From Calothrix sp. NIES-4105 (lineage in GTDB: Bacteria > Cyanobacteriota > Cyanobacteriia > Cyanobacteriales > Nostocaceae), in NCBI GenBank assembly GCA_002368415.1, contig AP018290.1:10893121-10925120 (forward strand): a stretch of 32,000 nucleotides of DNA, given 5' to 3'. The notes beneath the pieces were generated by a model. The model was not told the DNA's origin, searched no databases, and saw nothing but the letters and a program-made list of their open reading frames with translations. Numbering within the stretch: the stretch's first letter is position 1; the number at the start of each line of letters is the position of its first letter. The translations under genes and the position numbers were made by a program. This document shows, one piece after another, positions 504 to 21,721 of the stretch.

Positions 504-695
504 TCATGATTTTTTAGGCTTTTCAGCTTTCCAGGTTCCACCATATACATAAAATGGGTTATCCTGACTAATTTTCTGCCAGCAATCAGGACATGTAAAT
601 ACCCAATCACCTTCTTCTTCGTATTTAACTCGGTATAAAACTGGTGCAGGTTGATTACAAAAGTGACAAGGTTTGACGCGCGCTCTGACTGCCAT
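504..695 (-). CDS. Small zinc-ribbon protein (63 aa, CxxC...CxxC)
   Basis: The ORF has Cys pairs CHFC and CPDC about 20 residues apart and a basic tail. Its ATG lies 3 nt after the stop of the upstream 896-aa gene, so the two are probably co-transcribed. Confidence 0.6.
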   Translation of the reverse strand: MAVRARVKPCHFCNQPAPVLYRVKYEEEGDWVFTCPDCWQKISQDNPFYVYGGTWKAEKPKKS

Positions 696-698
696 ATT

Positions 699-3389
699 TT
701 AATGGATTAGTATCGCTAATAGTACTATTATAGCAAATTCAGTAAATAATACCCATTTGTAGACTTTAATTTGCGTTTCTAACTGTTGAAGCTTGAGTAT
801 TAAGTCATTTACTTTTGGTCGCTGTTGTTTTTGTATAAATGTAGCCAAATAGTCATGAACAAGTTGATAGCGGTCGTCAGGATTTGCTGGAATTAAAACA
901 ACAATACCTGCTGCCACAAAAATATTTAAGACTATATCTAATCTACTGTCATCTATGGACGCTTGTTTCCAATTGTTATCGATAATTCTTAACATAAAAG
1001 CTTGTTTCAACTCTGAATGAGTTTTTGCAGGACGAATTGCTTTTTCGTCAGTGAGTAGATATAATAATATTTCTGCTATTTTTTGGTTCTCTTGACCACA
1101 GTCTTGAATAACTTCTTGTAAATAGCGTTTGACTAATTCTTGTTTAGGACCTCGCTGTTGATACTGTAATGATGTTGTAATATTTTCAGTTTCTAATTGC
1201 GCGCAAACGATTTGTAACTCAATTGGTCTTACTTCACCAAATTTAATCGCTAAGTCATCTACTAAACGTTCGATTAAATCTAATTCTAAATGGTGTTTGG
1301 AACGTTCGCTCAGGCGCCCAATTAGTGTTTTTGCATCGTTTGTTGAAAAATTACCTATCTCATATAGAACATTTTTACTCAAAACATCATAACTAATAAT
1401 ATTCATGCTGGGGATACGAATACATTCGAGTAAGTAATGCAAATAATCTTTTCGTAGTGATAAAATAACTTTTACTCCTAGTAAATTTAAACACTCACCT
1501 AAAAAATGAAAAAATTCATATCGCTGCTGATAAGTATTGTATTTAAACAAAAACTCCTCAAATTGGTCAAAAATTAAGACAAATTTGAAATTATATGACA
1601 AAGAGTCTTTGAGAATTTGCAGAAGCTTATCTGGTGTCACTTTCTCGGCTTTTTTATGAATTTTTGTTAGTAACACAAATGCCAGCGCGTTATCTAATTC
1701 ATCAACCCAGCAGTCATAAAATCGCATGTATACTGTGGTGATATTAATATTCGTTTTAATACTTGTTCGTTTTAAAGCCGGAATTAACCCAGCTTGTAGA
1801 AGCGAAGTTTTTCCAACACCAGAATATCCATGAATAACGATAAGTTTATGGTCAGGACGCATAATTCGCTCTAGCAACTGCTTAATATCTCGTCCTCGTC
1901 CAGAAGCTGTAATTTCCGGCGCCAGTGTTTCTTCTAATGATTTATTATCTACAGCATCAATAATTTGCGTTAAACTTGACTGTGGTTTGCGCTGTGCTTG
2001 GATTTTTCCGGCGCCGATAAAAGCTCGAAACCCATATTGTTGTTCGGTCGAACGTATTTCTAACTTACATTTGTAAGCTTCTAAATAGCGGTTTTGTTTC
2101 CAATAAACAGCTTTTAATAGCTGTAAAATTTGAATATATTGAGTTGGATTATCTTTGTTACCAAGAGAACGTGCTTGTAACAAATGTTTGATTGCACGCA
2201 GCGTTTGTCCTAATTTGAGTTCTGAAGATGCAAGCAATAATAAATATAATCCTTGATATTGTGCTGCTGAATCTTTAGTACTATAATGTAGTGCTTGATA
2301 TGCATCTTGCTTTGCCTTCTTCCAAAGTCGTTTACTCAAAGCAACTTCTGCTAAAAAACCATAAACGCGCGCGACTCGTGTAGAGTTACCATAAAGCTTT
2401 TGTAAATCTAAAGCATTTAAAGCCAGACGCTGCAAATCATCCCAAGCTTCTAAACGTTTTAGTGTTTCACCCAGTGGGTTAATAAATTTAGCAACTAAAT
2501 TTAGATGATTCGCTTGGGTAAATATATCAATACACTGTTCAAAAAAGTTTCTTGCTTGCTTTAAGTACTCTTGTGAGTTTGTAATATTCTCAGATTTTTG
2601 ATAATAACACAAACCAATATGAAAAAATAGTATCCCTGCCCGCATTTTGTTAAATAATGTTTTTTCTTGCCTCCAATAAATTAAACTACGCTGGAGATAA
2701 TCTAAGGCAGTATCGATTTGATTATTTAAATAAGCTTGTTGACCGCGCACAAAATCTACACTTGCTTTTAATGAGGGTTGGAGATGGTACTGTATTAACT
2801 GTAAATCATGATGATATCTAATAATTTCGTTACGACGTATGTATCCTATTTGCCAACCAATAGAATATGTATCTGATGCTAGTGCAACTTCAAAAATAGC
2901 ATTGGTGTCACGTTTTAATTGTTTGATTAATTCATCAGTTGTAATGGTAAACTCTATCGTGGTAGCCCAACTTTCAAAATCACTCGATAATCGCATCATT
3001 TTGCCTAAAACTTCGTCGTTAACCCACAAAACAATCGGGAAATTAAAGTTTTTACGGAATTCTTCGCGAATTAGGTTTGTTGCAATTATTAATTGATCTA
3101 AATTTGATACATATTCTAAACCCCATACCATGATTGCTTTTGGTTGCTTTGGTAGAAGCGTTTCAATTTTTTTGTATAAGCTGTTTTCTGTTTTCCTCAA
3201 GCTGAGAACAGGAATTTTAGTGTTTGTTAGTTTTTGCAAGTGTTTGTACAGAACTGAGCGTAATAGAACGTAGTTACAGCGTGCTAGGATTAATCTGAAT
3301 TCATCTTGTGATGCTGAAAGTGTCCATGCTAGCTCTTCTAGCGCTGGAGAAATTTCTAGATGGGCGCCGATTTCTTTTTTGTCTGGCAT
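699..3389 (-). CDS. Multidomain TPR plus STAND-like P-loop NTPase with a C-terminal membrane anchor (896 aa)
   Basis: Walker A is KLIVIHGYSGVGKTSLLQAGLIPAL (aa ~515-540, nt ~1800-1830). Walker B is FVLIFDQFEEFLF (aa ~603-615). VRPIELQIVCAQL follows downstream, and these motifs are typical of cyanobacterial NACHT/nSTAND-type NTPases. Residues ~200-450 are TPR-like helical repeats. The N-terminal ~160 aa resemble an alpha/beta NTPase-like fold without a GKT loop (FRLILARCN ... PIVLWVNDE). The last ~20 aa (WVLFTEFAIIVLLAILIH) form a hydrophobic helix. Confidence 0.8.
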   Translation of the reverse strand: MPDKKEIGAHLEISPALEELAWTLSASQDEFRLILARCNYVLLRSVLYKHLQKLTNTKIPVLSLRKTENSLYKKIETLLPKQPKAIMVWGLEYVSNLDQLIIATNLIREEFRKNFNFPIVLWVNDEVLGKMMRLSSDFESWATTIEFTITTDELIKQLKRDTNAIFEVALASDTYSIGWQIGYIRRNEIIRYHHDLQLIQYHLQPSLKASVDFVRGQQAYLNNQIDTALDYLQRSLIYWRQEKTLFNKMRAGILFFHIGLCYYQKSENITNSQEYLKQARNFFEQCIDIFTQANHLNLVAKFINPLGETLKRLEAWDDLQRLALNALDLQKLYGNSTRVARVYGFLAEVALSKRLWKKAKQDAYQALHYSTKDSAAQYQGLYLLLLASSELKLGQTLRAIKHLLQARSLGNKDNPTQYIQILQLLKAVYWKQNRYLEAYKCKLEIRSTEQQYGFRAFIGAGKIQAQRKPQSSLTQIIDAVDNKSLEETLAPEITASGRGRDIKQLLERIMRPDHKLIVIHGYSGVGKTSLLQAGLIPALKRTSIKTNINITTVYMRFYDCWVDELDNALAFVLLTKIHKKAEKVTPDKLLQILKDSLSYNFKFVLIFDQFEEFLFKYNTYQQRYEFFHFLGECLNLLGVKVILSLRKDYLHYLLECIRIPSMNIISYDVLSKNVLYEIGNFSTNDAKTLIGRLSERSKHHLELDLIERLVDDLAIKFGEVRPIELQIVCAQLETENITTSLQYQQRGPKQELVKRYLQEVIQDCGQENQKIAEILLYLLTDEKAIRPAKTHSELKQAFMLRIIDNNWKQASIDDSRLDIVLNIFVAAGIVVLIPANPDDRYQLVHDYLATFIQKQQRPKVNDLILKLQQLETQIKVYKWVLFTEFAIIVLLAILIH

Positions 3390-3397
3390 TGATTATA

Positions 3398-3471
3398 TTA
3401 CCACAGAGACGCAGAGTACACAGAGAGATGTTTGTTTAATTAACCACAAAGGACACAAAGGACACAAAGAG
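3398..3471. repeat. Intergenic short-repeat block A (TTACCACAGAGACGCAGAGTACACAGAGAG) plus B (AACCACAAAGGACACAAAGGACACAAAGAG)
   Basis: Read directly. B (3442-3469) is the perfect reverse complement of 4888-4915. A (3398-3425) matches the reverse complement of 5073-5100 at 25 of 28 positions. Confidence 0.75.
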
Positions 3472-3485
3472 AAGAGAGAAGATGT

Positions 3486-4853
3486 TTATGGGTAGGAGGG
3501 GGTGTTTCCTAATTCTTCTGCTTCTACTAATATTGGGTTTACGTCAAACCAAGATTCTCCGTTATAGTTACGGTATTCAAAGACTAAACGACTGTGAATG
3601 AGTGTTTGATAATCTTTATCACCGCCAACTTTTTTGCGTATACGGACTTGTCGCAGTAGTTCCCATTCTTCATCACTAATTTGCATTGTCATTTCGTTAC
3701 GACGTGAACGAATTAAAGCTTCGAGAGTTTCTCTTTGCAAGGGCAGTGTTCTTTGGCGTTGAATCCAGTTATTTAATAATCTGAGTAAGTCACGTACATG
3801 ACCACCACTGATTTGACATAAACGGTCTAAACTTTGGGGTGTGTCAAAAATCTTGGTAATTCGACTCAAACGTGTACTAGCGTCTAAATTCGGAAAAGCA
3901 CGCACCAATACCATTTGACGCATCAATTCCATACCAGGTTCACAAGAACTACCATCTTTGTAATGTACTGGCACCATTGGCAACACTCTTGCATCTTCTG
4001 GAAAGCGTTGTGTCAAGTTGTTGTAGTCGTTCGAGAACTTCAGAGCTAACGGCATTGTGTAAACTACATGACAATTCAGCTTGGTTAAATACTCGCTTTG
4101 GTCGATAAATAAATACTCTTGTTGCGGGCGCCCCCAAGGTTTGACACGGTTGTCGATGCGGTCGAGGTTATCAATGATGACGACAAGTCCATTTTTACCG
4201 CGCTGTTTCAATTTTGTAGTGGCAGGTTCTAACAACTCTTTATTTATCGCTTCCAAAAGCTTACTCTTTTGAGGCGCCAGATACTGATTGAGTCGTTCGC
4301 GTAATGTTGCGTCACCTTTAGTTCGGGTTGTAATTTCGCCAATTCCCATAGAGAGTGAAAACTTTTCTTTCTCCGAGTTAAAACCGATATCACCAACAAC
4401 CGGAATTTTTGCTTTTATTCCTGTAACTTCTGCATTCAACACTTTCCAGGCGCCTTGAAGCAATTCCTTAAGTTTATCAGGTTCACTTAACTTGATATCA
4501 ATCAAACTCTGGCTGACGTGACGTGCAACAGCTAACAAAAAATCACCAATATCCACATCTGCCATTTCCAAGTCTTGACTTGACTCAAAGTAAACTACAT
4601 AAAAATTTTCTTTTTCCAATTCTGATTTTAGTTGCAATAATTCGGTAGATTTACCACAGCCAATATGACCAGTAAACAACTGACAAGTTGGTTCTTCAGG
4701 AGAGAAAAAAGTAATATTATCTCTCAACTCCTCAATAATCTTACCACCTCTAACCGTAGAAAAATCAATATATAACTTCTGGTCTTCAATATTATCAAAA
4801 GCCAGCGTTTTACTAGGATTAGTCGCCTGATAAAAAGCACGTAAATCTACCAT
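3486..4853 (-). CDS. P-loop ATPase (AAA+/ORC-like, 455 aa) of unknown function
   Basis: Walker A is CQLFTGHIGCGKSTELLQL (aa ~57-75). Walker B is GLVVIIDNLDRID (aa ~222-234). A sensor-like GGHVRDLLRLL follows, then a helical C-terminal region. No recognisable nuclease, protease or TIR effector domain was seen. Confidence 0.8.
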   Translation of the reverse strand: MVDLRAFYQATNPSKTLAFDNIEDQKLYIDFSTVRGGKIIEELRDNITFFSPEEPTCQLFTGHIGCGKSTELLQLKSELEKENFYVVYFESSQDLEMADVDIGDFLLAVARHVSQSLIDIKLSEPDKLKELLQGAWKVLNAEVTGIKAKIPVVGDIGFNSEKEKFSLSMGIGEITTRTKGDATLRERLNQYLAPQKSKLLEAINKELLEPATTKLKQRGKNGLVVIIDNLDRIDNRVKPWGRPQQEYLFIDQSEYLTKLNCHVVYTMPLALKFSNDYNNLTQRFPEDARVLPMVPVHYKDGSSCEPGMELMRQMVLVRAFPNLDASTRLSRITKIFDTPQSLDRLCQISGGHVRDLLRLLNNWIQRQRTLPLQRETLEALIRSRRNEMTMQISDEEWELLRQVRIRKKVGGDKDYQTLIHSRLVFEYRNYNGESWFDVNPILVEAEELGNTPSYP

Positions 4854-4887
4854 TCTTCTATTCCTTCCTTCCTTTCTTTCTTTCTTT

Positions 4888-4915
4888 CTTTGTGTCCTTT
4901 GTGTCCTTTGTGGTT
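4888..4915. repeat. Repeat B' (CTTTGTGTCCTTTGTGTCCTTTGTGGTT), inverted copy of 3442-3469
   Basis: 28/28 reverse-complement identity. It is preceded by a 30-nt polypyrimidine tract, (TTCC)n(TTTC)n, at 4861-4890. Confidence 0.75.
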
Positions 4916-5072
4916 CGTCATCTAAATAATTCAGTAAATTTACTGTTTACAAATACAAAAAAGCAATAATACTTACATAAAAAATAGATAATCAGAACTT
5001 AATATAATGGTATATTTTTTATCAGCAAAGTGTTTAGTCTATAAAAATACATCTACCAAAAATACTTCTCAT

Positions 5073-5100
5073 CTCTGTGTTCTCTGTGCCTCTGTGGTAA
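5073..5100. repeat. Repeat A' (CTCTGTGTTCTCTGTGCCTCTGTGGTAA), inverted copy of 3398-3425
   Basis: 25/28 reverse-complement identity by eye. Related units occur at 11851-11877 (CTCTTCTGCGTGTCTTTGCGGTAA) and 25061-25098 (CTTTGCGTCCTTAGCGTTCTTTGCGGTT). Confidence 0.65.
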
Positions 5101-10881: not shown

Positions 10882-11667
10882 TTACTTCTTCTGCTTCTTT
10901 TTCTTTTTGAACAACTGCTTAAATTTAAGAGAAAGAGGGTTAAAATCAAAGACTTTGCCAGTACTAAACAACTGAAAACCGAATGATATAGCCGCAAACG
11001 ATGCAAGAACAGAGAAAAGAGACACTGAACCAATGATCTTACCATTGGCGATAAATATAGCAATACCTAACCCTATTAAAATCCATCCCAACCTACGTTT
11101 ATCTTTTCCACCGTAATTTAATAGAATTACTCCGACGATACACAGTATAGTACCAGGCGCGCTACGTAAGTAGATACCAACATATATTTTCGTACTCAGA
11201 AATATAATCCCGCCAATAATCAGCCCTAAGCCAAGTAATTTACTAGCAATTGTAATTTCTGATTCAAAGTCTGTATCATCCGAATCTTCTTCATCTTCAT
11301 TCGTGACAATTTTTGTTGGCGCGCTGCCACCTTGTTGCCGAAAGATGAAACTTACCTTATCACCTTGTCCTAATGAAATCTTGTCACCAAATTTTATTGG
11401 TTGAAAAACTTTAGGTTGCAGTTTAACGCCATTTACATAAGTACCGTTAGAACTACCTAAATCAGTAATTTGATACTCTGAGCCATTAACCCAAATTTGT
11501 GCATGGACACGCGATACAATATCAGCATCTGGAAAACCAGACACATCAATATCCGGCTGCTTTCCATCATCGCCAGGTTTGCCAATCAAAATTACAGAAA
11601 GATTTGCAGGCAACACCAACCTTTCATTCGTTTGGAGATGATAAAGTTCTAAAGATACACTCTGCAT
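10882..11667 (-). CDS. FHA-domain protein with C-terminal transmembrane region and poly-Lys tail
   Basis: FHA signature ILIGKPG...DIDV...VSRVHAQI...YQITDLGSSNGTYVNG. An acidic linker is followed by about 4 predicted TM helices, ending FKKKKKQKK. Confidence 0.8.
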   Translation of the reverse strand: MQSVSLELYHLQTNERLVLPANLSVILIGKPGDDGKQPDIDVSGFPDADIVSRVHAQIWVNGSEYQITDLGSSNGTYVNGVKLQPKVFQPIKFGDKISLGQGDKVSFIFRQQGGSAPTKIVTNEDEEDSDDTDFESEITIASKLLGLGLIIGGIIFLSTKIYVGIYLRSAPGTILCIVGVILLNYGGKDKRRLGWILIGLGIAIFIANGKIIGSVSLFSVLASFAAISFGFQLFSTGKVFDFNPLSLKFKQLFKKKKKQKK

Positions 11668-11956: not shown

Positions 11957-12535
11957 TTATTCTTGTAGTTCAAACTCAACATTATCGTAAATATCTGCTA
12001 GAGTAATTTCAAATTTGACAGAATTTAACGAAATCGTCGCATTCTCATCGTCATATTCGGAAAATATCCATTTATTATTATCAGTTTTGGAATATTGCTC
12101 AACGTGTATTGTATACTGGTCAATCAAAAGATACTCTTGAAAGCTTTCGATTGTCCGATAAGCACTAAATTTTTCATCTTTATCGTTACTTTTTGTAGAT
12201 TTTGATAATACTTCAGCAATGATTAGTGGATTAATAATAGTATCTCTACGTCCTTCTTGAAGCTCTAAAGGCTTTTTAACTACCATCACATCAGGATAAG
12301 TATGAATTCGCTTTTTAGGAATCCATAATCTTTGGTCTGTCATAAAAACCCGATGATGACGCTTCAAAGTAGAGTTGAGCGCACCGCTTAGGTTGAGAGC
12401 AATCTGGTTGTGATTTGGTGTTCCGCCTGTCATAGAAATTATTGTACCATCAATGTACTCATGACGCTCTTGAGAATTAACTTCGAGTTCCAGGTATTCT
12501 TCGGCTGAATAGTGCCTTTGTTCTTGCGAAATCAT
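11957..12535 (-). CDS. Uma2-family (DUF820) putative endonuclease
   Basis: SAEEYLELEVNSQERHEYIDGTIISMTGGTPNHNQIALNL ... IAEVLSKST is the characteristic Uma2 pattern found at high copy number in cyanobacteria. Confidence 0.8.
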   Translation of the reverse strand: MISQEQRHYSAEEYLELEVNSQERHEYIDGTIISMTGGTPNHNQIALNLSGALNSTLKRHHRVFMTDQRLWIPKKRIHTYPDVMVVKKPLELQEGRRDTIINPLIIAEVLSKSTKSNDKDEKFSAYRTIESFQEYLLIDQYTIHVEQYSKTDNNKWIFSEYDDENATISLNSVKFEITLADIYDNVEFELQE

Positions 12536-12745: not shown

Positions 12746-13741
12746 CTACACCCTATAACCGCTTTCAATAGAGACAGCTTGGTCTGTTGATTTTGGTAGT
12801 GAATTAGCTCGTACCGCGCGGAACATCCCAAAGCGGCAAAGGCCAGTGCCGAATGCTAACCGCATTAGTAGTAAAGTAGGTACTTCGCGTAAAGATTTAA
12901 TAAAACCAGATATCCCAAAACGTACCAGTCCAGATGGTCGAGCTACTCCTTGCCAGATCGAATCTATCCATGAAGGAAGTGTTTGTTGCGTCCAATCTGC
13001 CGTTATTACGTTTCCCTCAACTAGTCCCGTTGCCTCTAAAAGTTCAGAAAAGCCTTCAATGCTGGAAAAAGCCGGATGAGACCATTGATCTAATAGTTGC
13101 TGCATTACTGGTTTTTCCCAAAAATTCAAAGGCGCCTGTCGGTCGTCCCTTTGGTTCCAGTCTGCCACAACAAGTATTCCACCAGGTTTTAACACCCTGA
13201 TTAATTCTTTAGCAAAAACGGCTTTATCTGGCATATGTGGTCCAGCTTCAATCGACCAAACTACATCAAAACTAGCATCTGGGAAAGAAAGTGCCATCGC
13301 ATCATCCACTAAAAATTGCACATTCAGTTCATCAGAAGTTAACTGCTGCGCGCGTTGGACTTGTTGCGGACTGATTGTAACACCCGTAACTGCAAATCCA
13401 TAATCCCGTGCTAATATGCGACTGCTACCACCAATTCCACAGCCTACATCCAAAAGCGTGGCGCCGTATGGTAATTTATCTAAACCACCCCAACGTACCA
13501 TTTCATCTACAAAATCAGATTTAGCAACCAGAAAATCCTTCCGTTGCGGTGGTGAACCATAATGACCCAAGTGGATATGTTCACCCCAGTAAAACTCTAA
13601 AATACCGTCTTGAGTCCATTCATCATAGGAATTAGCTACAGAGTTAGATGATTGATAACGCCGAGCAGTGATTAAATATAATGCAATCAAGAACGTCAGT
13701 ACTGCAACAACTAGTCCCAGCGCAGAAAGATACAGACTCAT
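12746..13741 (-). CDS. 2-methyl-6-phytyl/solanesyl-1,4-benzoquinol methyltransferase (MPBQ/MSBQ-MT, Synechocystis sll0418-like)
   Basis: Near-colinear match to my memory of Sll0418: an N-terminal TM helix, then YDEWTQDGILEFYWGEHIHLGHYG, the SAM motif LLDVGCGIGGSSRILA, DDAMALSFPDASFDVVWSIEAGPHMPDKAVFAKEL, ILVVADWNQRDDRQ and LCRFGMF. Confidence 0.85.
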   Translation of the reverse strand: MSLYLSALGLVVAVLTFLIALYLITARRYQSSNSVANSYDEWTQDGILEFYWGEHIHLGHYGSPPQRKDFLVAKSDFVDEMVRWGGLDKLPYGATLLDVGCGIGGSSRILARDYGFAVTGVTISPQQVQRAQQLTSDELNVQFLVDDAMALSFPDASFDVVWSIEAGPHMPDKAVFAKELIRVLKPGGILVVADWNQRDDRQAPLNFWEKPVMQQLLDQWSHPAFSSIEGFSELLEATGLVEGNVITADWTQQTLPSWIDSIWQGVARPSGLVRFGISGFIKSLREVPTLLLMRLAFGTGLCRFGMFRAVRANSLPKSTDQAVSIESGYRV

Positions 13742-14765: not shown

Positions 14766-14825
14766 TACAACGTCTACAACGTAGTTACAGTAAGAGTTTA
14801 TCGTTGTTGTCATTTTCTACAACGT
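14766..14825. repeat. Three direct copies of TACAACGT near the left end of the element
   Basis: Copies at 14766-14773, 14775-14782 and 14818-14825, the last reaching the first base of the dnaB-like stop codon (14825-14827). Candidate recombinase-binding or iteron-like sites. Confidence 0.35.
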
Positions 14826-16153
14826 TAAGCTCTACCATATTTATCAGATAAGTCAACATCGCTGAAATTTCCTATATCTGTTTCAAATAATACCTTACAC
14901 ATGCCTGTAGCACCATTACGATTTTTAGCTACATTTATCTCCATTACTCCTTTATCTTGTGTGTCTGGATTATAATATTCGTCTCGATAAAGAAGTAACC
15001 CAATATCCATATCTTGTTCTATATCACCCGAGTCTTTAATATCAGCTATTGTTGGGCGTTTATTTGTTTGATTCTCCACACCTCTATTAATTTGGGCTAG
15101 TGCTATAAATGGCACATTAAATTCTTTGGCAATGTCTTTAAATGCACCAGAAAACTTACCAACTGCTTGCGCTCTATTACCTGCCGCTCTATCCCCAAGT
15201 TTTTGAATATAATCCATTACTACTAAACCTAAACTTCCTTTAGAGGACTGAACTCTTCGCAGTACAGAAGACACCCTTGAAGGGTTTTGGATACTAGCTG
15301 GCGTATCATCAATAATAATAAGTAATTGGTTTAAAGCTACTACAGCTTGTTTTAAATTATCCATTTCGTCTCGATATATCTGATTGCTCATCAGCCTACT
15401 AGAATCAATACCCGAATGCATTGCCAAAAATCTTTTAGTTAACTGCGATTTAGACATTTCCGCAGAAAAGAAAACAACAGGTAGTTGTTGATGGATTGCA
15501 ATATGATTAGCAAAATGGCAACCTAACCAGGTTTTACCCATTGATGCCCTAGCAGCGATTACAATTAAATCCTGTTTATTTAATCCTCCTATTAATGCAT
15601 CTAAATCTTTTAATCCAGTAGAAAAGCCTGGAGTATACCCTTGTTGTAATTCATCAAATACTTCTCTTATCGACTCACTTATTAGTTGTGGTTGAAATTT
15701 ATCTTGCTTGTTTGCTGTTAAATTAAAAATTTTATTCTCTGATTGTTCTAGGACTGCTTGAACTCCTTGTGTTGTATCGTAGCCTAATTCCACAATTTCA
15801 TTACCAGCCCTAATTAGCTGCCGACGCAGGTATTTATCCAAAACAAGCTTTGCTAGGTTATCTATATTTATAGCTGATACTATTTCAATTAATTGAGCTA
15901 GCTGATTCTTCCCACCAACTTTAGTTAATAGTTTATGGTCGGATAACCAAGATGTAACTGTTACTAAATCGGTTGGTTTACCCTGATGGTATAATTCTAA
16001 TATTACTTTATAAATTTGTTGGTAAGCAGGAACGTAAAATGCTTCTGGCACTAAAATATCAGCAATTCTACCAATAGCATTTGGGTCTAACAAGCAACCA
16101 CCAAGTATGTCTGATTCTGCTTCAATAATTTGTGGAGGTATTTTATCATTCAT
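14825..16153 (-). CDS. DnaB-family replicative-type DNA helicase (element-encoded, 442 aa, intein-free)
   Basis: N-terminal DnaB domain (PPQIIEAESDILGGCLLDPNAI...PAYQQIY...GKPTDLVTV). Walker A is IVIAARASMGKTWL and Walker B is LVVMDYIQ. ALAQINRGVENQTNKRPTIADIKDSGDIEQDMDIGLLLYRDEYY is the canonical DnaB C-terminal signature. Its ATG overlaps the upstream stop (ATGAATGA). Confidence 0.9.
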   Translation of the reverse strand: MNDKIPPQIIEAESDILGGCLLDPNAIGRIADILVPEAFYVPAYQQIYKVILELYHQGKPTDLVTVTSWLSDHKLLTKVGGKNQLAQLIEIVSAINIDNLAKLVLDKYLRRQLIRAGNEIVELGYDTTQGVQAVLEQSENKIFNLTANKQDKFQPQLISESIREVFDELQQGYTPGFSTGLKDLDALIGGLNKQDLIVIAARASMGKTWLGCHFANHIAIHQQLPVVFFSAEMSKSQLTKRFLAMHSGIDSSRLMSNQIYRDEMDNLKQAVVALNQLLIIIDDTPASIQNPSRVSSVLRRVQSSKGSLGLVVMDYIQKLGDRAAGNRAQAVGKFSGAFKDIAKEFNVPFIALAQINRGVENQTNKRPTIADIKDSGDIEQDMDIGLLLYRDEYYNPDTQDKGVMEINVAKNRNGATGMCKVLFETDIGNFSDVDLSDKYGRA

Positions 16154-17018
16154 GGGGTTTATCCATATCTATAAAAATATTACTAATTTCTGCCAGTTCA
16201 GTTATAGACACTAGTGTTCTGTCTGAATCGGCATGAGATAATGTTTTTGTTACTGGCTGTGCTTCAATATTTTTTGAAGTAGATTTTTGCGATGAAGGAG
16301 AAGGCTCCCATTTCTCTCTGATTGCTTGAACAACTAAACCACCTATGTTGTTAACATCGTTCTGTTGGATATACTGCTCAACTGCTAAAAGTGACCTAAT
16401 TACCTCTTGCTCATCCAAAGATGTAATAAGTTTAGTAAGAGTAGAATTAAGTTTAATTTCTAAGCTCTCTAGTTTTTGGTGGATTGATTCAGGTATTTCC
16501 TTCCCTTTACGAGAGACTTTTGTAATTGGTATTACCCTTTGAGGTATTTTAGATTCAAGATTAGCTAATTCCTGTTTTAATTCTTGAACCTCATGTGTTA
16601 GTTTTTCATTTTCTAACTTTAAACGTTCAGTTAAATCATTTGCTCCTTGCATCTGATAAAGCTTACCAGTAAGCGATTCGTTAATTTTTCGTAACTCATC
16701 AATTTCTACTCTCAAACGCTTATTTTCTTCCCTCAATGTTGAAATAATTACAGTTTTAGAGTTATCCGATGCTGGCGGAACTTCCTTAAGTTTAGGCTTT
16801 TGTTTCTGCTGGTCACGTAAAGTTTCAATTCTATTTCTCAAATCTTCCTGCTTGTACAAGTAAGCAGTCGATACATTAGCAGCAGTAGCAACAGATTTAA
16901 AGCTAATTATTTGACCCTGTTTTATCATCCTCTCAAGTGCTTTCTCCACTCGTTCTGCTGTTATGAGCGCTTTCTGTGCTGCCGCCTCTTGTAAAGCTTC
17001 TATCTTCTTATTAGTCAT
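16146..17018 (-). CDS. TnpC-like accessory protein: N-terminal HTH-like segment plus long coiled coil (290 aa)
   Basis: The N-terminus (ALQEAAAQKALITAERVEKALERMIKQGQIISFKSVATAANVSTAYLYKQEDLRNRIETLR) resembles the small third gene of Tn554-type three-gene modules (DUF6262-like, from memory). Residues ~90-160 are heptad-rich (ENKRLRVEIDELRKINE...LKLENEKLTHEVQELKQELANLE). The ATG overlaps the upstream stop (ATGACTAA). Confidence 0.55.
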   Translation of the reverse strand: MTNKKIEALQEAAAQKALITAERVEKALERMIKQGQIISFKSVATAANVSTAYLYKQEDLRNRIETLRDQQKQKPKLKEVPPASDNSKTVIISTLREENKRLRVEIDELRKINESLTGKLYQMQGANDLTERLKLENEKLTHEVQELKQELANLESKIPQRVIPITKVSRKGKEIPESIHQKLESLEIKLNSTLTKLITSLDEQEVIRSLLAVEQYIQQNDVNNIGGLVVQAIREKWEPSPSSQKSTSKNIEAQPVTKTLSHADSDRTLVSITELAEISNIFIDMDKPHE

Positions 17019-18603
17019 TATCTGCCTCCAAGGTTTTAATTACTTTCTCTAAGTTGTCTTTGATAGGCGTATTTTTATGAACTTGTAGCTGCCAACCACA
17101 ATTCTGGGCTTTTTCTAAAACGTTGTTAGTGCGCTCTAAAGTATCTTTTAGAATGGGCAGGAAGTTTTTGTTTGTTCTCCAGTGTGGGCAGTTGTAGCAG
17201 CCATCAAAACCAGGAATATCACAATCTCCTAATACCTTGGGTCTAGCACAATAACCATGCTCCAATGCTCTGGCTTGCACATTTTTTTTGAACCACTCTA
17301 AATCATCATTACTAGAGAGTATCGTTTCGTCTAATTCAGTAGTTTCACCTTGGAAATTAACTACTTTTGATTCGTGATACTTTTCAACTTCTTTTCTGAG
17401 CGTTTCATCATGAATGTGAGCATATACCATTGTCATCGTTGGCGATTCATGACCTAAATAGCGCTGAACAATATGTTGTGGAACACCATTATTTATCATG
17501 CGAGTTCCAACTGTATGTCGAAATTGATGAGTCTGAAAATTCCAAGTTTTGCCTGTGCTTTCGCAAATGTTAAATTGCTCTGCTAAACGTTTTAAATGAT
17601 TAGCAAATGATTGGTCTGACATAACTCTAGGTACAGGAACAAATTTTGAAGATGCTTTTCTTCCACAAAAAAGGTACTTATAATCTTTACCAAAATTCTG
17701 TTGAATATAAACCTGCTGCTCTTTAATAACTTGAGCAAGTTCTATAGATATAGGTAGGGTTGTTTCAAAATTCATCTTCCAACGCATAAATTGAATAAAC
17801 CACCCACCCTTATTATCTTGTTTGAGGCAATCTAACCCTAGTTGACATAGCTCACCTATCCTCAAACCACATTCTTGAATAACTAATACCATTCGCATTA
17901 TTGGCTCTGGTAATACATCTAAGTGTTGATTTAGTTGTCCAATAACCTCTTCTGGAATATAACGAGGTAAAGCCTTATCGCGTTTTGGATAATCTTCTTT
18001 GCGTACCAAATAAGGTTCAACTGTAAACCATTTATTAGCGGAACCGACTTCAAACAAGGATACTAAAGCAGAAATACACTTACCTTTAGTTATTTGAGCC
18101 AATGATTCTTTGTTGAGGTAAAACAAATAATTAATGATTACTTCCCTAGTAATATTTTCTATTTTGTTTATCTCAGGCTGATTCAACAAGAATTTTGAAA
18201 AATAACGAAATCGATACAAAAAAGATTGTAAGCTTTGAAAACTGCTTGTCTGACTAGCTTTGTACTTAATAAATTTTTTAATGTATACCTTTAACCACTC
18301 TTGATAAATATTCCGATTAAAGTTAAGTTTATCTCCATCATTACTGTGAAGCTTAACCTGTAAACCTAAATCAGCAGCAGTCCATACATCATCGCTTTTC
18401 ACTAGTTTTTTGCGATTAGCGAAAGGAACAAACTGAGCGTCGCAATTTTTACACCGATATCTTTGTTTTCCTGATTTTTTAAACCCTGCTTTTATATAAT
18501 TATCACTTCCACATTTTGAGCAAACAATTTGTGCTGGTAAAACAACCTGAAGTTCTGTTTTTACTTGAAGTTTCTGCTCTAATTTATTGTTCATTTTCAC
18601 CAT
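17011..18603 (-). CDS. Large tyrosine recombinase (Tn554 TnpB-like) with N-terminal zinc ribbon and C-terminal Cys cluster
   Basis: Catalytic residues are GLRIGELCQL (Arg), HQFRHTVGT (HxxR) and LGHESPTMTMVYAHI (His...Tyr). The N-terminal zinc ribbon is CSKCGSDNY...YRCKNCDAQF. The C-terminal Cys cluster is HGYCARPKVLGDCDIPGFDGCYNCPHW. The start is ATG 18603 or 18594, and either overlaps the upstream gene. Confidence 0.85.
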   Translation of the reverse strand: MVKMNNKLEQKLQVKTELQVVLPAQIVCSKCGSDNYIKAGFKKSGKQRYRCKNCDAQFVPFANRKKLVKSDDVWTAADLGLQVKLHSNDGDKLNFNRNIYQEWLKVYIKKFIKYKASQTSSFQSLQSFLYRFRYFSKFLLNQPEINKIENITREVIINYLFYLNKESLAQITKGKCISALVSLFEVGSANKWFTVEPYLVRKEDYPKRDKALPRYIPEEVIGQLNQHLDVLPEPIMRMVLVIQECGLRIGELCQLGLDCLKQDNKGGWFIQFMRWKMNFETTLPISIELAQVIKEQQVYIQQNFGKDYKYLFCGRKASSKFVPVPRVMSDQSFANHLKRLAEQFNICESTGKTWNFQTHQFRHTVGTRMINNGVPQHIVQRYLGHESPTMTMVYAHIHDETLRKEVEKYHESKVVNFQGETTELDETILSSNDDLEWFKKNVQARALEHGYCARPKVLGDCDIPGFDGCYNCPHWRTNKNFLPILKDTLERTNNVLEKAQNCGWQLQVHKNTPIKDNLEKVIKTLEADND

Positions 18604-19699
18604 CTCTTGCTGCCAAATACTTGTCGTACTCTATCCGTAAATCGTTATCTGTTAAATGCACATAGGTATTAATGGTGGTTTGAATATCTGTATGTCCTAA
18701 CCGTTTTTGCACATACGCCATTTCCCAGCCTGACCTGATTAATTCTGTTGCATGAGTATGTCTCAATAAGTGTGGATTAACTTTTATGTCAGTTTTTTTA
18801 GACAATCTCCTAAATAAACTATCAACAGTTTTGTAACTTAATGGTGTACCAATTTTTCCCTTTCCCGGAGCTTGAATAACTACAAAAACAAAGTCACAGT
18901 CAATATCTTCTGGGTACTCGTCAATTAAATAAGCTGAGTACCATTGCATAAGTTCTTTACTAACATGAACTATCCGTTCTACTCCAGATTTAGCTCTAAC
19001 GTAGTTAATATTATCTAATCTTGGTACAACATGAATCTCATTGTTTTTACCTGTAACCATATCTTCATGTCTCAGCCCCAGAGCCTCCCCTATTCGTAGC
19101 CCTGTTTCGTATAACAACCTGACTAAAAATTTATCTCGTAATGTGTTACAAGCGGAGACTAATTTGTTAACTTCTTCAGCAGTTAAACATCCAGGGAATT
19201 TTTTCGGCTCTTTAATTTTTAGCAACCGCGTTTTAACTTCTTTCCCTTTACTTATATGGTGTAAAAAAGGTTTATATTTACGACCTGGCTGTAATTGATA
19301 GCGATAAACATAAACGTCAACTTCTTTGGTTACTTCAATACGTTCTTGAAACTCATAAAATCCACAAACAGTTGTTAAACAGTGATTAATTGTTTTCTCG
19401 CAACGTTTGGAAACTTGTGGTTGGATAGATAATACTCCTGAATTAGGATTTCTCAGCCAATGGATAAAGTTTGATAACTCCTCCATATTTATCTCAAACC
19501 AACTTAGCTTTGAATCCTTTAAGAACGCCCAAAACAGCTTCAGGTTATGAGCATAAGTTTGAATCGTATTTGGAGAACGCCCTACACTGTCTAAATAATG
19601 CAAGTACTTTTGAATTGGCTCAATGGGTAAATAGTCATCGTCCAGTACCATCCAAACCGGACGGTCGGTGTCTGGGATGATACCCTTTTGAACTTTCAT
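18584..19699 (-). CDS. Tyrosine recombinase (Tn554 TnpA-like, ~371 aa)
   Basis: A core-binding-type N-terminal domain (SPNTIQTYAHNLKLFWAFL). Catalytic residues are GLRIGEALGLRHEDM (Arg), HLLRHTHATELI (HxxR) and LGHTDIQTTINTYVHL (His...Tyr). I prefer the ATG at 19699 (MKVQKGIIPD...), which is preceded by GGGGGCAGTGAG, over the 19765 start in the track. Confidence 0.85.
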   Translation of the reverse strand: MKVQKGIIPDTDRPVWMVLDDDYLPIEPIQKYLHYLDSVGRSPNTIQTYAHNLKLFWAFLKDSKLSWFEINMEELSNFIHWLRNPNSGVLSIQPQVSKRCEKTINHCLTTVCGFYEFQERIEVTKEVDVYVYRYQLQPGRKYKPFLHHISKGKEVKTRLLKIKEPKKFPGCLTAEEVNKLVSACNTLRDKFLVRLLYETGLRIGEALGLRHEDMVTGKNNEIHVVPRLDNINYVRAKSGVERIVHVSKELMQWYSAYLIDEYPEDIDCDFVFVVIQAPGKGKIGTPLSYKTVDSLFRRLSKKTDIKVNPHLLRHTHATELIRSGWEMAYVQKRLGHTDIQTTINTYVHLTDNDLRIEYDKYLAARDGENEQ

Positions 19700-19823
19700 C
19701 TCACTGCCCCCAATACCGATATTTACGCTATAGACGTAGTTTACTATAAAGCGTAAATATGACAACAGCGTAGTGATAAAACTTAATATCAGCTACGCTG
19801 TTGTTGTTGTTGTTATTTATAAT

Positions 19824-21233
19824 TTAATAAGAGATAACTTGCGGTATAGTGTAGGCATCCGAAAGAGTCTTTTTCAAGATATCAATGATTTCCTTCGCGG
19901 TACTTTCTTCCATAGTTCCAACTACAGAAATCTTCCCACTACGGCGTCTTATTCTGGGGAAAATGCCCAACCCCAGTCGCTTCAAATTAATAGAGGCATT
20001 AATGTCTCTATCAACTTTCAACATTTCTTTCTCATCCCAATATTCTGGAATATCAGTATCAGTAAAAACTATTTCATTCCGATAGCTGAGAACTTGGGAA
20101 GAATACGCAGGATTTTGAGGTATTACAACGGCTCCAGCTTTTCCGGCTATGTGACCCAATATCTCAAAAAACTGTCCAAAAGCAGCATCCATCCAAGACT
20201 TATTCAATCCCGACTTTGCAGATTGTCCATTTGGCAAATATTTACCATCTTCGTCTTGTTTGGGTGCATTTCTTTTGCTCAAACCTTGTAAATTTAACTT
20301 TTCTGGGAAAAATACTTTCTTCCCAGTACGGACTAGTTTGTGAGCAGTTTTATATTGAAAATCTTTACGACTTCTAGCTATTTTTTGATGCCGTCGAGCT
20401 TCTTTTTTAGCTAGTTTACGTCGTGACTTACTGCCACGTTTACGTTTATTTCTATCTATCGAAATTTTGTCTAGTTTGTGCTGATTCCTGCGTAAAGATT
20501 TTAAACTTGCTAATTTAGTCCCTTCAGATGTTGCTAGATAATCATCTTCGTGCAAAACAGCATCTAATCCTATTGAATTTTCCCATGTTGGGGTAATTGA
20601 ATCAGGATTAAATTCCGGCACAGAAGTATCTTCTAGGCACATTTGCATGTACCAACCGTCAACCTTTTTAGTTACACCAACTTGTTTTAATTTAAAACCA
20701 AGTGGCAACGGTCGATGCATTCTAACTTTAACAACTCCAAGTTTCGGCAGACGCAAATAAAGCCAATTCTTACGAACTAGTTTTATCCAATCATCATTTG
20801 CACTTGCGAATGTCATGGTTCGGAAACTCGCTTCTGTTTTAAAGCGTGGTTTACCTGACCGCTTACCATTACAATCACCAAGAATATAACGAGCGAAAGC
20901 TTCATCAACTCGTTTACAAATATCCTGAAGGATAGTTGAGTCAACACGAGTAAAATCAAGCAATTCCCCGCTATGCATTACCCGAACCAAGTCTTGCTTG
21001 ATAATGGGTAATTGCAATTTCTGATTGTAATAATTTGGGCGATTCCCAAACAGTGTTGGAAATATTTCTTTCCACTGCGGAAATGCTTGTAATTGCAAGT
21101 GATTATTCTGCCACCAAGTGAAGCGTTCACCCAACTGACGGTTATACCAGTAACGGGAGATCCGCAACCAATCATTAAGCTCTAGCTTTTGATTAGTGTC
21201 TGGATAAAATTTATACTGGTATGTAGTCTTCAT
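19824..21233 (-). CDS. tnpB: IS605-type TnpB (RuvC-like RNA-guided nuclease family), variant without zinc-finger cysteines
   Basis: The start is MKTTYQYKFYPDTNQKLELNDW (ATG at 21233). The RuvC triad candidates are IGLDAVL (Asp), VFFPEKLNLQGL (Glu) and KVDRDINASINL (Asp). Between NPAYSSQ and DRDIN the usual CxxC...CxxC is replaced by VLSYRNEIVFTDTDIPEYWDEKEML. Confidence 0.85.
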   Translation of the reverse strand: MKTTYQYKFYPDTNQKLELNDWLRISRYWYNRQLGERFTWWQNNHLQLQAFPQWKEIFPTLFGNRPNYYNQKLQLPIIKQDLVRVMHSGELLDFTRVDSTILQDICKRVDEAFARYILGDCNGKRSGKPRFKTEASFRTMTFASANDDWIKLVRKNWLYLRLPKLGVVKVRMHRPLPLGFKLKQVGVTKKVDGWYMQMCLEDTSVPEFNPDSITPTWENSIGLDAVLHEDDYLATSEGTKLASLKSLRRNQHKLDKISIDRNKRKRGSKSRRKLAKKEARRHQKIARSRKDFQYKTAHKLVRTGKKVFFPEKLNLQGLSKRNAPKQDEDGKYLPNGQSAKSGLNKSWMDAAFGQFFEILGHIAGKAGAVVIPQNPAYSSQVLSYRNEIVFTDTDIPEYWDEKEMLKVDRDINASINLKRLGLGIFPRIRRRSGKISVVGTMEESTAKEIIDILKKTLSDAYTIPQVISY

Positions 21234-21255
21234 AAACGCTCCGACAAGAGCGTAA

Positions 21256-21284
21256 TTGACTTGGTGTTTGAATATGGTTATACT
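21256..21284 (+). promoter_or_regulatory. Sigma70-like promoter for tnpA (TTGACT, 17 nt spacer, TATACT)
   Basis: -35 TTGACT at 21256-21261 and -10 TATACT at 21279-21284 with a 17-nt spacer. It lies about 18 nt upstream of the GTG at 21302, in the divergent tnpB/tnpA spacer. Confidence 0.4.
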
Positions 21285-21301
21285 ATCAAAGTGTTTATAC
21301 G

Positions 21302-21721
21302 GTGTCAAGCGTGAAAGAAGATTTTATTTCCCGTGCCAGAGGGGTGTCAGACCTCAAGGCACATTTGGTGTTGACTACAAAGTACCGTAGAAAAGTATTT
21401 ACAGGAGAAATGATTAATCGGCTGCATGAAATACTGAAAGAACTATTGAAAAAATGGGATTGTGAAGTGGTTGATTTTAACGGCGAATCTGATCATGTAC
21501 ACTTGCTTTTTCGTTACACTCCACAAACTGAACTACCCAAATTTATTAATAACGTTAAGACTGTCACAAGTCGTTACTTACGCAAAGAATTTGCTGATAG
21601 AATTAATCAATTTTATAAAAAAGATGTTCTTTGGAATGGCTCATATTTTATTGCATCGTGTGGAGGCATAACAGTTGAAACACTTAAAAAGTATGTCGAA
21701 TCCCAAAACAAGCCTGAATAA
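21302..21721 (+). CDS. tnpA: IS200/IS605 Y1 (HUH) transposase TnpA
   Basis: LKAHLVLTTKYRRKVF, the HUH motif SDHVHLLF and the catalytic-Tyr region NGSYFIASCGG. The start is GTG 21302 or GTG 21311. Confidence 0.85.
   Translation: MSSVKEDFISRARGVSDLKAHLVLTTKYRRKVFTGEMINRLHEILKELLKKWDCEVVDFNGESDHVHLLFRYTPQTELPKFINNVKTVTSRYLRKEFADRINQFYKKDVLWNGSYFIASCGGITVETLKKYVESQNKPE

Follow-up and report, generated by a model that had tools for sequence, protein, structure and literature searches.

STAND and NLR proteins play a central part in immune and cell-death signalling across animals, plants, fungi and bacteria, and what each of them does is set by its N-terminal effector or adaptor domain. Once the sensor has bound its ligand, the protein oligomerises in a nucleotide-dependent manner, and the partner recruited through the N-terminal domain is activated by induced proximity. 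Here we compare with such systems a locus of Calothrix sp. NIES-4105, located in a stretch of 32,000 nucleotides (contig AP018290.1, positions 10,893,121 to 10,925,120) that we call the window. Gene A (NIES4071_99360; positions 3486..4853 of the window, minus strand) encodes a predicted KAP/Orc1-Cdc6-like AAA+ ATPase of 455 residues, and gene B (699..3389, minus strand) encodes an nSTAND1 protein of 896 residues. We find that A followed by B is a robust and widely conserved cyanobacterial two-gene module. On balance we favour the reading that it is an NLR-like NTPase signalling module with A as the constant partner or output.

nSTAND1 was delineated as a clade in a study of systems of multicellular bacteria that are predicted to act against invaders (Kaur, Burroughs, Iyer & Aravind 2021, PMC8195603). 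B resembles these bacterial NLR-like proteins in its nSTAND1 domain (PF20703), which has intact Walker motifs, and in the tripartite architecture of its family, consisting of an N-terminal module, a nucleotide-binding oligomerisation domain (NOD) and variable repeats. The B family is also found mainly in filamentous cyanobacteria and has self-similar WD40 and TPR arrays. It differs in that the N-terminal slot contains a P-loop-less AAA+ domain and TPR instead of a TIR, caspase, trypsin or EAD domain. Further differences are a dedicated upstream ATPase gene, which is nearly always present, a transmembrane (TM) helix after the NOD, and, for B of the window, the lack of a sensor.

The MoxR-vWA ternary conflict systems, which comprise VMAP, iSTAND and FtsH classes (Kaur et al. 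2020, PMC7159879), carry effectors at the C-terminus of their vWA component (PMC7159879). Like the A-B pair, they combine an active AAA+ protein with a protein containing an inactive NTPase domain, the FtsH class having an inactive and an active ATPase in tandem. They are favoured in multicellular bacteria, and an A-like domain is fused into one VMAP-MoxR operon (locus L113, see below). In contrast, the window locus has no MoxR, vWA or VMAP gene, and A lies outside the MoxR clade. Pfam detected no MoxR or VWA domain in the window reading frames scanned, i.e. those of at least 110 residues plus a 63-residue gene downstream of B. The N-terminal domain of B (N-domain) matched no Pfam family.

By structure, A and the N-domain both come closest to ORC, RFC and other clamp loaders, TnsC and IstB, which provide a precedent for the co-assembly of active and inactive subunits. 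This similarity is at the level of the fold, with no sequence homology or DNA-replication context, and a mixed ring of A and N-domains is hypothetical. Canonical KAP proteins have TM helices inserted between Walker A and Walker B. A shares with the KAP family of P-loop NTPases (Aravind et al. 2004, as cited in PMC8195603) a marginal Pfam match, a DxLDR-type Walker B motif and a long insert between the two Walker motifs, but its insert is soluble and its fold resembles Orc1/Cdc6 with a winged helix. A third group of similar proteins consists of defence ATPases of approximately 450 residues: the PADLOC candidate PDC-S20, MADS mad8, QatA and DS-41 protein 1 (DefensePredictor, PMC13092281). Between 21 and 29 of 31 A-family members show weak but consistent profile similarity to them from Walker A to Walker B. 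However, A scores 23 bits against the DS41_1 model (cut-off, 370), the partner genes differ, and we saw no shared operon structure. The EACC1 system was rejected as a candidate, as it has different components (a TM protein and a caspase).

The locus is not a MoxR-vWA ternary system, EACC1, Avs, or any system in PADLOC or NCBIfam. What is known is the nSTAND1 class; what seems new is an NLR-like STAND module with an unnamed, putative adaptor domain and a dedicated partner ATPase. A literature search outside the subscription journals found no description of the A-B pair or the N-domain.

The A-B pair

A first-pass annotation of the window, made from the sequence alone, had proposed a trio comprising A, B and the 63-residue gene, which encodes a zinc ribbon. 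Its three reading frames are as it gave them, co-oriented and separated by 96 nt (A-B) and 3 nt (B-zinc ribbon), and every motif it quoted is found at a sensible position in A or B. B is 100% identical to a protein of Calothrix sp. NIES-4071. Comparison with other genomes reduces the trio to a pair. Starting from A, B is located directly downstream in 12 of 16 genome loci, including one in an unclassified metagenome-assembled genome (MAG) and a degraded copy in a Desulfatirhabdium MAG. Searching a metagenome collection with the A profile yielded more than 514 relatives and 80 loci. Over all loci, an N-domain gene is next downstream on the same strand in 72 of the 84 A copies with at least 700 nt of downstream sequence (86%). 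With at least 3 kb downstream, the figure is 56 of 64, and 54 of the 56 also contain nSTAND1. In the other direction, A is located upstream of all nine B genes examined: seven times as an intact gene, once with a frameshift (L109) and once as a remnant left by an internal deletion (Allocoleopsis PCC 7113). The stop codon of A overlaps the start codon of B in loci L009, L012, L108, L110 and L112, suggesting coupled translation. The earlier view that two unrelated NTPase genes form what looks like a functional unit is borne out from both sides of the pair.

Sequence conservation is highest in A, followed by the N-domain and then nSTAND1 or TPR. The pair also exists without a STAND domain. In Tolypothrix and Spirirestis (L015, L016), an A paralogue with 28% identity is followed by a 493-residue protein made up of an N-domain homologue and canonical TPR, from which we conclude that the conserved unit is A plus the pseudo-AAA+/TPR module. 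At both loci the pair is followed by genes for a 2TM-domain protein (PF13239) and a 784-residue TPR protein (12866-13351 and 13571-15925 in L015). Two fusions place A-like sequences in other proteins. In a Symploca sp. SIO1C2 MAG (L013, 8438-11323), a 961-residue protein joins a STAND-like NTPase of the AAA_16/nSTAND type to TPR and an A-like module; the gene before it encodes another AAA_16/nSTAND1-like ATPase, and the locus has no N-domain gene. On plasmid p057_J of Nostoc sp. C057 (L113, 1598-6771), an operon consists of VMAP (VMAP-M1 and VMAP-C), MoxR and a gene for a 974-residue protein, the last 390 residues of which are a full-length A homologue with intact Walker motifs (26% identity over 416 residues, E 1e-26). 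The third gene is in the position of the vWA component, so that an A homologue occupies the slot in which Kaur et al. place effectors; its vWA domain was recognised by eye only ('VVDEGTSM...FIIISDC'), not by profile. Genes for HEAT-repeat and FGE-family proteins are located downstream of the L113 operon.

Strains can have several paralogues: at least five A copies are found on three plasmids of Nostoc UHCC 0302. We found no A relatives in a scan of viral contigs or by tblastn with A against phage GenBank sequences. In L101, a short reading frame after A resembles a remnant of the N-domain.

A contains a Walker A motif, GHIGCGKSTEL, starting at residue 62 (residues 62-70) and a Walker B motif, VVIIDNLDR, at residues 224-232. 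Some 155 residues separate the two, in agreement with the roughly 150 given in the first-pass annotation, which had called A a second, unrelated ATPase. The soluble insert of about 150 residues includes a polar stretch predicted to be disordered (residues 142-177), and A contains no TM or hydrophobic segment (highest 19-residue Kyte-Doolittle mean, 1.03). A narrowly passes the Pfam KAP_NTPase model (PF07693) with 23.0 bits against a cut-off of 20 (E 5.7e-5); ATPase_2 (E 7e-7), AAA_22 and nSTAND5 are matched below threshold. The AlphaFold2 (AF2) model combines an AAA+ core with a helical lid and, at the C-terminus, a winged helix; it was built from a shallow alignment and hence is of moderate confidence (pLDDT 65.6). 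The best Foldseek matches in the PDB are archaeal Orc1/Cdc6 structures, 2qby_A (2.2e-5) and 2v1u, with ORC subunits, HslU, mS29, CED-4 and RdrA lower in the ranking. A PDB sequence search with the A profile gave nothing meaningful. A is 70-89% identical across Nostocales, Coleofasciculaceae and Trichocoleus (3454 matches), and its Walker motifs are invariant even in paralogues with 27% identity. Its acidic C-terminus, NPILxEAxEL, is also conserved. We therefore predict that A is an active AAA+ ATPase of the KAP/Orc1-Cdc6-like kind, complete with lid and winged helix.

B begins with the N-domain (residues 1-198; positions 2796..3389, minus strand), its best conserved part, which has a conserved NQVREEFRK/DFESW surface. 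The AF2 model of this domain (pLDDT 85, pTM 0.80) has a five-stranded α/β AAA+ core plus lid helices, and the top Foldseek matches in the PDB are all AAA+ proteins: RAD17-RFC (3.7e-6), Yta7, ORC, Hda, TnsC, RuvB, ClpC and IstB. The motif FRLILARCN starts at residue 31 and PIVLWVNDE at residue 118. LILARCNY takes the position of Walker A, and the loop at the P-loop site is just three residues long ('ARCNY'), making this a pseudo-AAA+ domain. The earlier guess of an NTPase fold lacking a P-loop agrees well with these results. Pfam assigned no family to any of 30 N-domain members, even at E<=1, and the PDB contains no meaningful sequence relatives of B or of the N-domain profile.

The N-domain is followed by a helical TPR-like region (residues 199-490; 1920..2795, minus strand). 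The TPR-like repeats noted earlier are weak in the window copy, where TPR_12 matches residues 384-438 below threshold (28.2 bits; cut-off, 30.1), but they are TPR in most homologues: PF13424 is precomputed for most of them in this region, and in the L015 paralogue the equivalent region is a canonical TPR (E 6e-45). The nSTAND1 NTPase (residues 497-848; 846..1901, minus strand) is matched by PF20703 with 104.1 bits against a cut-off of 27.1 (E 1.6e-29). Its Walker A (GYSGVGKTS, starting at residue 521) and Walker B (LIFDQFEE, residue 605) have G, K, D and E invariant in 114 homologues, and RPIELQIVC starts at residue 721. The domain is predicted to be active, as the first-pass annotation had thought from its P-loop. 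Alignment with hhalign of the N-domain with A, of the N-domain with nSTAND1, and of A with nSTAND1 showed nothing in common other than the P-loop, so that none of the three NTPase modules is a recent duplicate of another.

B ends in a single hydrophobic helix (residues 877-895; 705..761, minus strand; 19-residue Kyte-Doolittle mean, 2.13), which had been noticed before and is a predicted tail anchor. A charged, coiled-coil-like segment lies in front of it. In all 39 short-form homologues the C-terminus consists of 20-23 hydrophobic residues plus a short tail of variable length. Residues 817-835 were rejected as a TM helix, as this hydrophobic stretch lies inside the winged-helix part of nSTAND1.

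The N-domain, the TPR-like region and nSTAND1 are common to all 120 B homologues listed. The N-domain profile matches 1863 representative clusters (50% identity) at E<=1e-3, most members having 1200-2000 residues, and B proteins in loci reached through A mostly have 1200-2090. The family is concentrated in filamentous cyanobacteria. Its usual order is N-terminal module, nSTAND1, TM helix and variable C-terminal repeats or sensors; the modules after nSTAND1 include WD40 propellers, long TPR arrays, CHASE2, and dCache flanked by TM helices, and also adenylate cyclase and GUN4, with a weak GGDEF match in one relative. In long forms, a helix at the position of the tail anchor precedes the CHASE2, dCache, WD40 or TPR module. 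Short forms with nothing after nSTAND1 occur in Calothrix and Rivularia (880-1060 residues). B of the window stops 48 residues past the nSTAND1 match, with the hydrophobic helix only and no C-terminal repeat or sensor. The first-pass annotation had remarked on an unusual domain order. At the level of the family the order is the normal one for STAND proteins, most homologues carrying a C-terminal module, and the apparent anomaly arises from the window copy being a truncated family member. Having lost the C-terminal sensor and kept the anchor, this copy is a short form without a sensor, the least informative form of a widespread module; it is syntenic among close Calothrix genomes.

NLR repertoires typically contain repeats that are highly conserved within a protein. 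In long-form B, the WD40 arrays consist of 123-nt units repeated about 13.7 times with 90-94% DNA identity (L114, 12606-14287; L112, 12385-14080), which we take to reflect concerted evolution or rapid repeat turnover of a putative sensor.

A proposed order of signalling between A and B

We propose the following mechanism. B would be a STAND switch tethered to the membrane by its tail anchor. In its relatives, the variable C-terminal module (WD40 array, TPR, CHASE2, dCache or GUN4) would perceive a signal, upon which the active nSTAND1 domain would exchange or hydrolyse NTP and oligomerise. Oligomerisation would cluster the constant N-terminal module, i.e. the pseudo-AAA+ domain and TPR, and the clustered module would act as an adaptor docking A. 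A would then be assembled or activated by induced proximity and deliver a constant output. The Calothrix short form may be constitutively active at the membrane, or it may serve sensor-bearing paralogues as a hub.

Mixtures of active and inactive subunits are common in initiator and clamp-loader AAA+ assemblies. A and the N-domain both resemble this group, which makes heterotypic AAA+ pairing a plausible contact between the two proteins; alternatively, the acidic C-terminus of A could bind in the TPR groove of B. The first-pass annotation had suggested that the membrane anchor may be the output. This is unlikely given that A is the constant and most conserved element, and that in relatives the helix links to CHASE2 or dCache or precedes WD40 or TPR modules. 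A pore-forming role of the C-terminal helix was likewise dropped, the family architecture giving it no support. A more specific version of our proposal, which we regard as improbable, is that the P-loop-less N-domain is a new NLR adaptor that recruits A as executioner or transducer by heterotypic AAA+ pairing, in the way Death-fold and TIR domains recruit their partners, and that the Calothrix form is a membrane helper-NLR hub, making this a bacterial equivalent of the sensor/helper NLR networks of plants.

With A as the output, NLR signalling would take place in a way that is new. The N-terminal slot of the B family is occupied by an unnamed dead AAA+ domain plus TPR, nearly always coupled to a gene for a highly conserved Orc1/KAP-like ATPase, and the large, uncharacterised 'WD-40 repeat protein' repertoires of filamentous cyanobacteria would then share a testable common mechanism. 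The domain boundaries and Walker residues are now defined for mutagenesis, and short and long forms of B can be compared.

Several observations weigh against this reading. A has no recognisable effector chemistry beyond its ATPase and winged helix, so that its role as output is inferred, and the structural model of A is of moderate confidence only. The physical contact between A and B, the direction of signalling and the output of A are extrapolated from the behaviour of STAND and NLR proteins. The cyclase and weak GGDEF modules at the C-terminus of some B proteins are outputs, not sensors, and a generic model may not apply to the window copy, which has no sensor. Finally, there are 11 orphan A genes, e.g. 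beside aroE or ftsQ-ftsZ, so that A can persist without an adjacent B. An orphan A-like subfamily with 50-56% identity occupies conserved housekeeping positions, by aroE in L060, L061, L063 and L070 and by ftsQ-ftsZ in L083.

A serious rival that also fits these data is the reverse order, in which A acts on B: A would be a chaperone or MoxR-like threshold switch that loads, remodels or disassembles B oligomers, and B would be the output by way of its variable C-terminus or its location at the membrane. The initiator/loader-like AAA+ fold of A speaks for this scheme, as do the cyclase and GGDEF outputs in some relatives; the overlapping genes hint at stoichiometric co-expression of the two proteins. 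AAA+ partners have been described as thresholding switches, and one class of ternary systems has inactive and active AAA+ domains in tandem (PMC7159879). The L015 and L016 paralogues, however, keep A and the pseudo-AAA+/TPR protein without any STAND or output domain, A-like domains are found fused to the end of other proteins, where effectors are placed, and B of the window has no output domain apart from a single helix. We judge the reverse order to be unlikely, and continue with A as the constant partner or output.

Conflict system or ordinary signalling

What the A-B module signals about is a separate question. An anti-phage or abortive-infection system, in which B senses infection and the cell is killed or arrested either by A or by the C-terminal helices once clustered, is possible but doubtful. 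The nSTAND1 clade comes from the literature on counter-invader systems of multicellular bacteria (PMC8195603), and in L113 an A-like domain occupies the effector slot of a VMAP-MoxR operon. Long-form relatives have highly self-similar WD40 arrays, paralogues are expanded on megaplasmids, and the pair on Acaryochloris pREB2 is surrounded by HicAB, RelE/ParE, integrase and NACHT genes. The A family also weakly but consistently matches the defence ATPases PDC-S20, mad8 and DS-41 protein 1.

These matches do not amount to an assignment. Searches of the three window proteins and 31 A-family members against PADLOC 2.0 and NCBIfam returned weak matches at the level of the P-loop only, with no model near threshold; besides the score of A against DS41_1, there were matches of A to PDC-S20 (E 2.4e-4) and of B to TRIP13 (E 0.026), and the zinc-ribbon protein had no match. 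The first-pass annotation, too, had been unable to match the locus to any named defence system. It had suggested looking for defence islands nearby, and we found no consistent neighbourhood of this kind among the 149 neighbour genes of 32 loci; the pREB2 copy differs in this respect. PADLOC matches among these neighbours are generic (kinases, HTH, WD40/HEAT), the commonest Pfam families are housekeeping ones (phycobilisome linkers, alcohol dehydrogenases and FtsZ/FtsQ), and neither MoxR nor vWA is among the commonest. Nuclease, protease, TIR and SIR2 domains are absent.

The evolution of the window copy also argues against a conflict system. The locus is syntenic in four related genomes, where A has 86-87% identity, segments of B 72-80%, and the flanking amidohydrolase and GT2 glycosyltransferase 87-88% and 77-78%, respectively. 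B diverges no faster than GT2, and this copy hence gives no sign of accelerated evolution. The high identity of A across orders, the dCache, CHASE2, cyclase and GUN4 modules, which are typical of ordinary signalling, and the lack of any sensor in the window copy count against it as well.

Some members of the A-B family are core-like and others accessory-like. Surveillance for conflict or programmed cell death, a role to which we give nearly an even chance, is suggested by the NLR-like traits and by the VMAP fusion. Ordinary environmental or developmental signalling, a real possibility but somewhat short of even, is suggested by the dCache, CHASE2, cyclase and GUN4 modules, by how extremely A is conserved and by the housekeeping contexts. 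That the role is something else again seems quite unlikely.

The zinc-ribbon gene and the surroundings of the pair

The zinc-ribbon gene (504..695, minus strand) encodes a protein with CxxC motifs at residues 10 and 35, for which Pfam gave no family above threshold (DUF4428, PF14471, 19.4 bits; cut-off, 27.8). The family is small (27 clusters), and among 117 loci the gene is located downstream of B in those of the Calothrix clade only. It is probably a lineage-specific neighbour that does not belong to the module. Recruitment of the zinc ribbon as a replacement sensor or regulator for sensor-less B, which would make a true system of three genes in the Calothrix clade, would account for the co-orientation and the 3-nt gap, and for the gene following B in eight further Calothrix-clade loci, always with a short-form B. 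However, the gene was not found next to the short-form B of L009, L012 or Rivularia PCC 7116, its spacing from B varies between loci, with an extra reading frame in between in L008, and none of the 80 metagenome loci obtained with the A profile contains it. The family also has a conserved place of its own in three other genera: in Nostoc FACHB-152, Tolypothrix campylonemoides and Plectonema radiosum, the gene follows a Ycf81_N+PIN gene, near hemN and clpP, and neither A nor B is found within 6 kb of it. These observations make a three-gene system a rather remote prospect. Of the proposed trio, the A-B pair holds, in 86% of loci; the zinc ribbon is independent outside the Calothrix clade, and the three families do not co-occur in the way the first-pass annotation had made the test of its proposal.

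Two nested long-range inverted repeats, made of 9-nt tandem units, enclose gene A. The 3' arms (3398..3470) fill the A-B spacer, the outer arm ending 9 nt before the start codon of B; the 5' arms (4887..5100) are located 34-247 nt upstream of the start codon of A. The inner pair (unit CACAAAGGA) is 29 nt long and 100% complementary, and the outer pair (unit CACAGAGNN) is 29 nt long and 90% complementary. The motif is not found elsewhere in the window. The outer pair is kept at the same positions in Calothrix HK-06 (L002) and PCC 7103 (L003) and is absent from five other relatives. Cofolding of the region upstream of A with the spacer gave -120.8 kcal/mol, compared to -55.4 +/- 4.6 for shuffled sequences. 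The repeats could form a helix for mRNA processing or translation control, or DNA inversion or gene conversion could act on them.

On one side of the pair are genes for a GT2 glycosyltransferase, an amidohydrolase and an Mpo1-like protein, and on the other is a phycobilisome-linker gene. The context had been described as repeat-rich and accessory-looking. The immediate flanks are housekeeping genes and syntenic in the four related genomes; a recombinase/TnpB element does lie approximately 10 kb away. This mobile-element-like block (14825-21308) contains genes for a DnaB-like helicase, a DUF6262 protein, two tyrosine recombinases and IS605 OrfB/TnpB, the last with a Cas12f-like TNB domain, and may be behind the accessory-looking impression.

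A-B pairs adjoin phycobilisome-linker or cpeS/cpeT genes in three subtypes of B (short, CHASE2 and GUN4); such pigment-gene-adjacent loci are L017 (3166-3933), L002, L008, L010, L019 (15363-20389), L109 (1-2185) and L117 (1992-3113). One B has a tetrapyrrole-binding GUN4 domain at its C-terminus, and in Rivularia PCC 7116 a ChlI-like Mg-chelatase AAA gene is located upstream. These phycobilisome and tetrapyrrole neighbours may be old synteny or a hint of a link to pigments or tetrapyrroles.

Rfam has no match in the window, and scans for promoters and terminators gave chance-level results. Elsewhere in the window are genes for an FHA protein (10882-11667), a Uma2-family endonuclease (11957-12535) and an 802-residue response regulator (26620-29028), which has three receiver stretches, a Trans_reg_C DNA-binding domain, Hpt and GGDEF.

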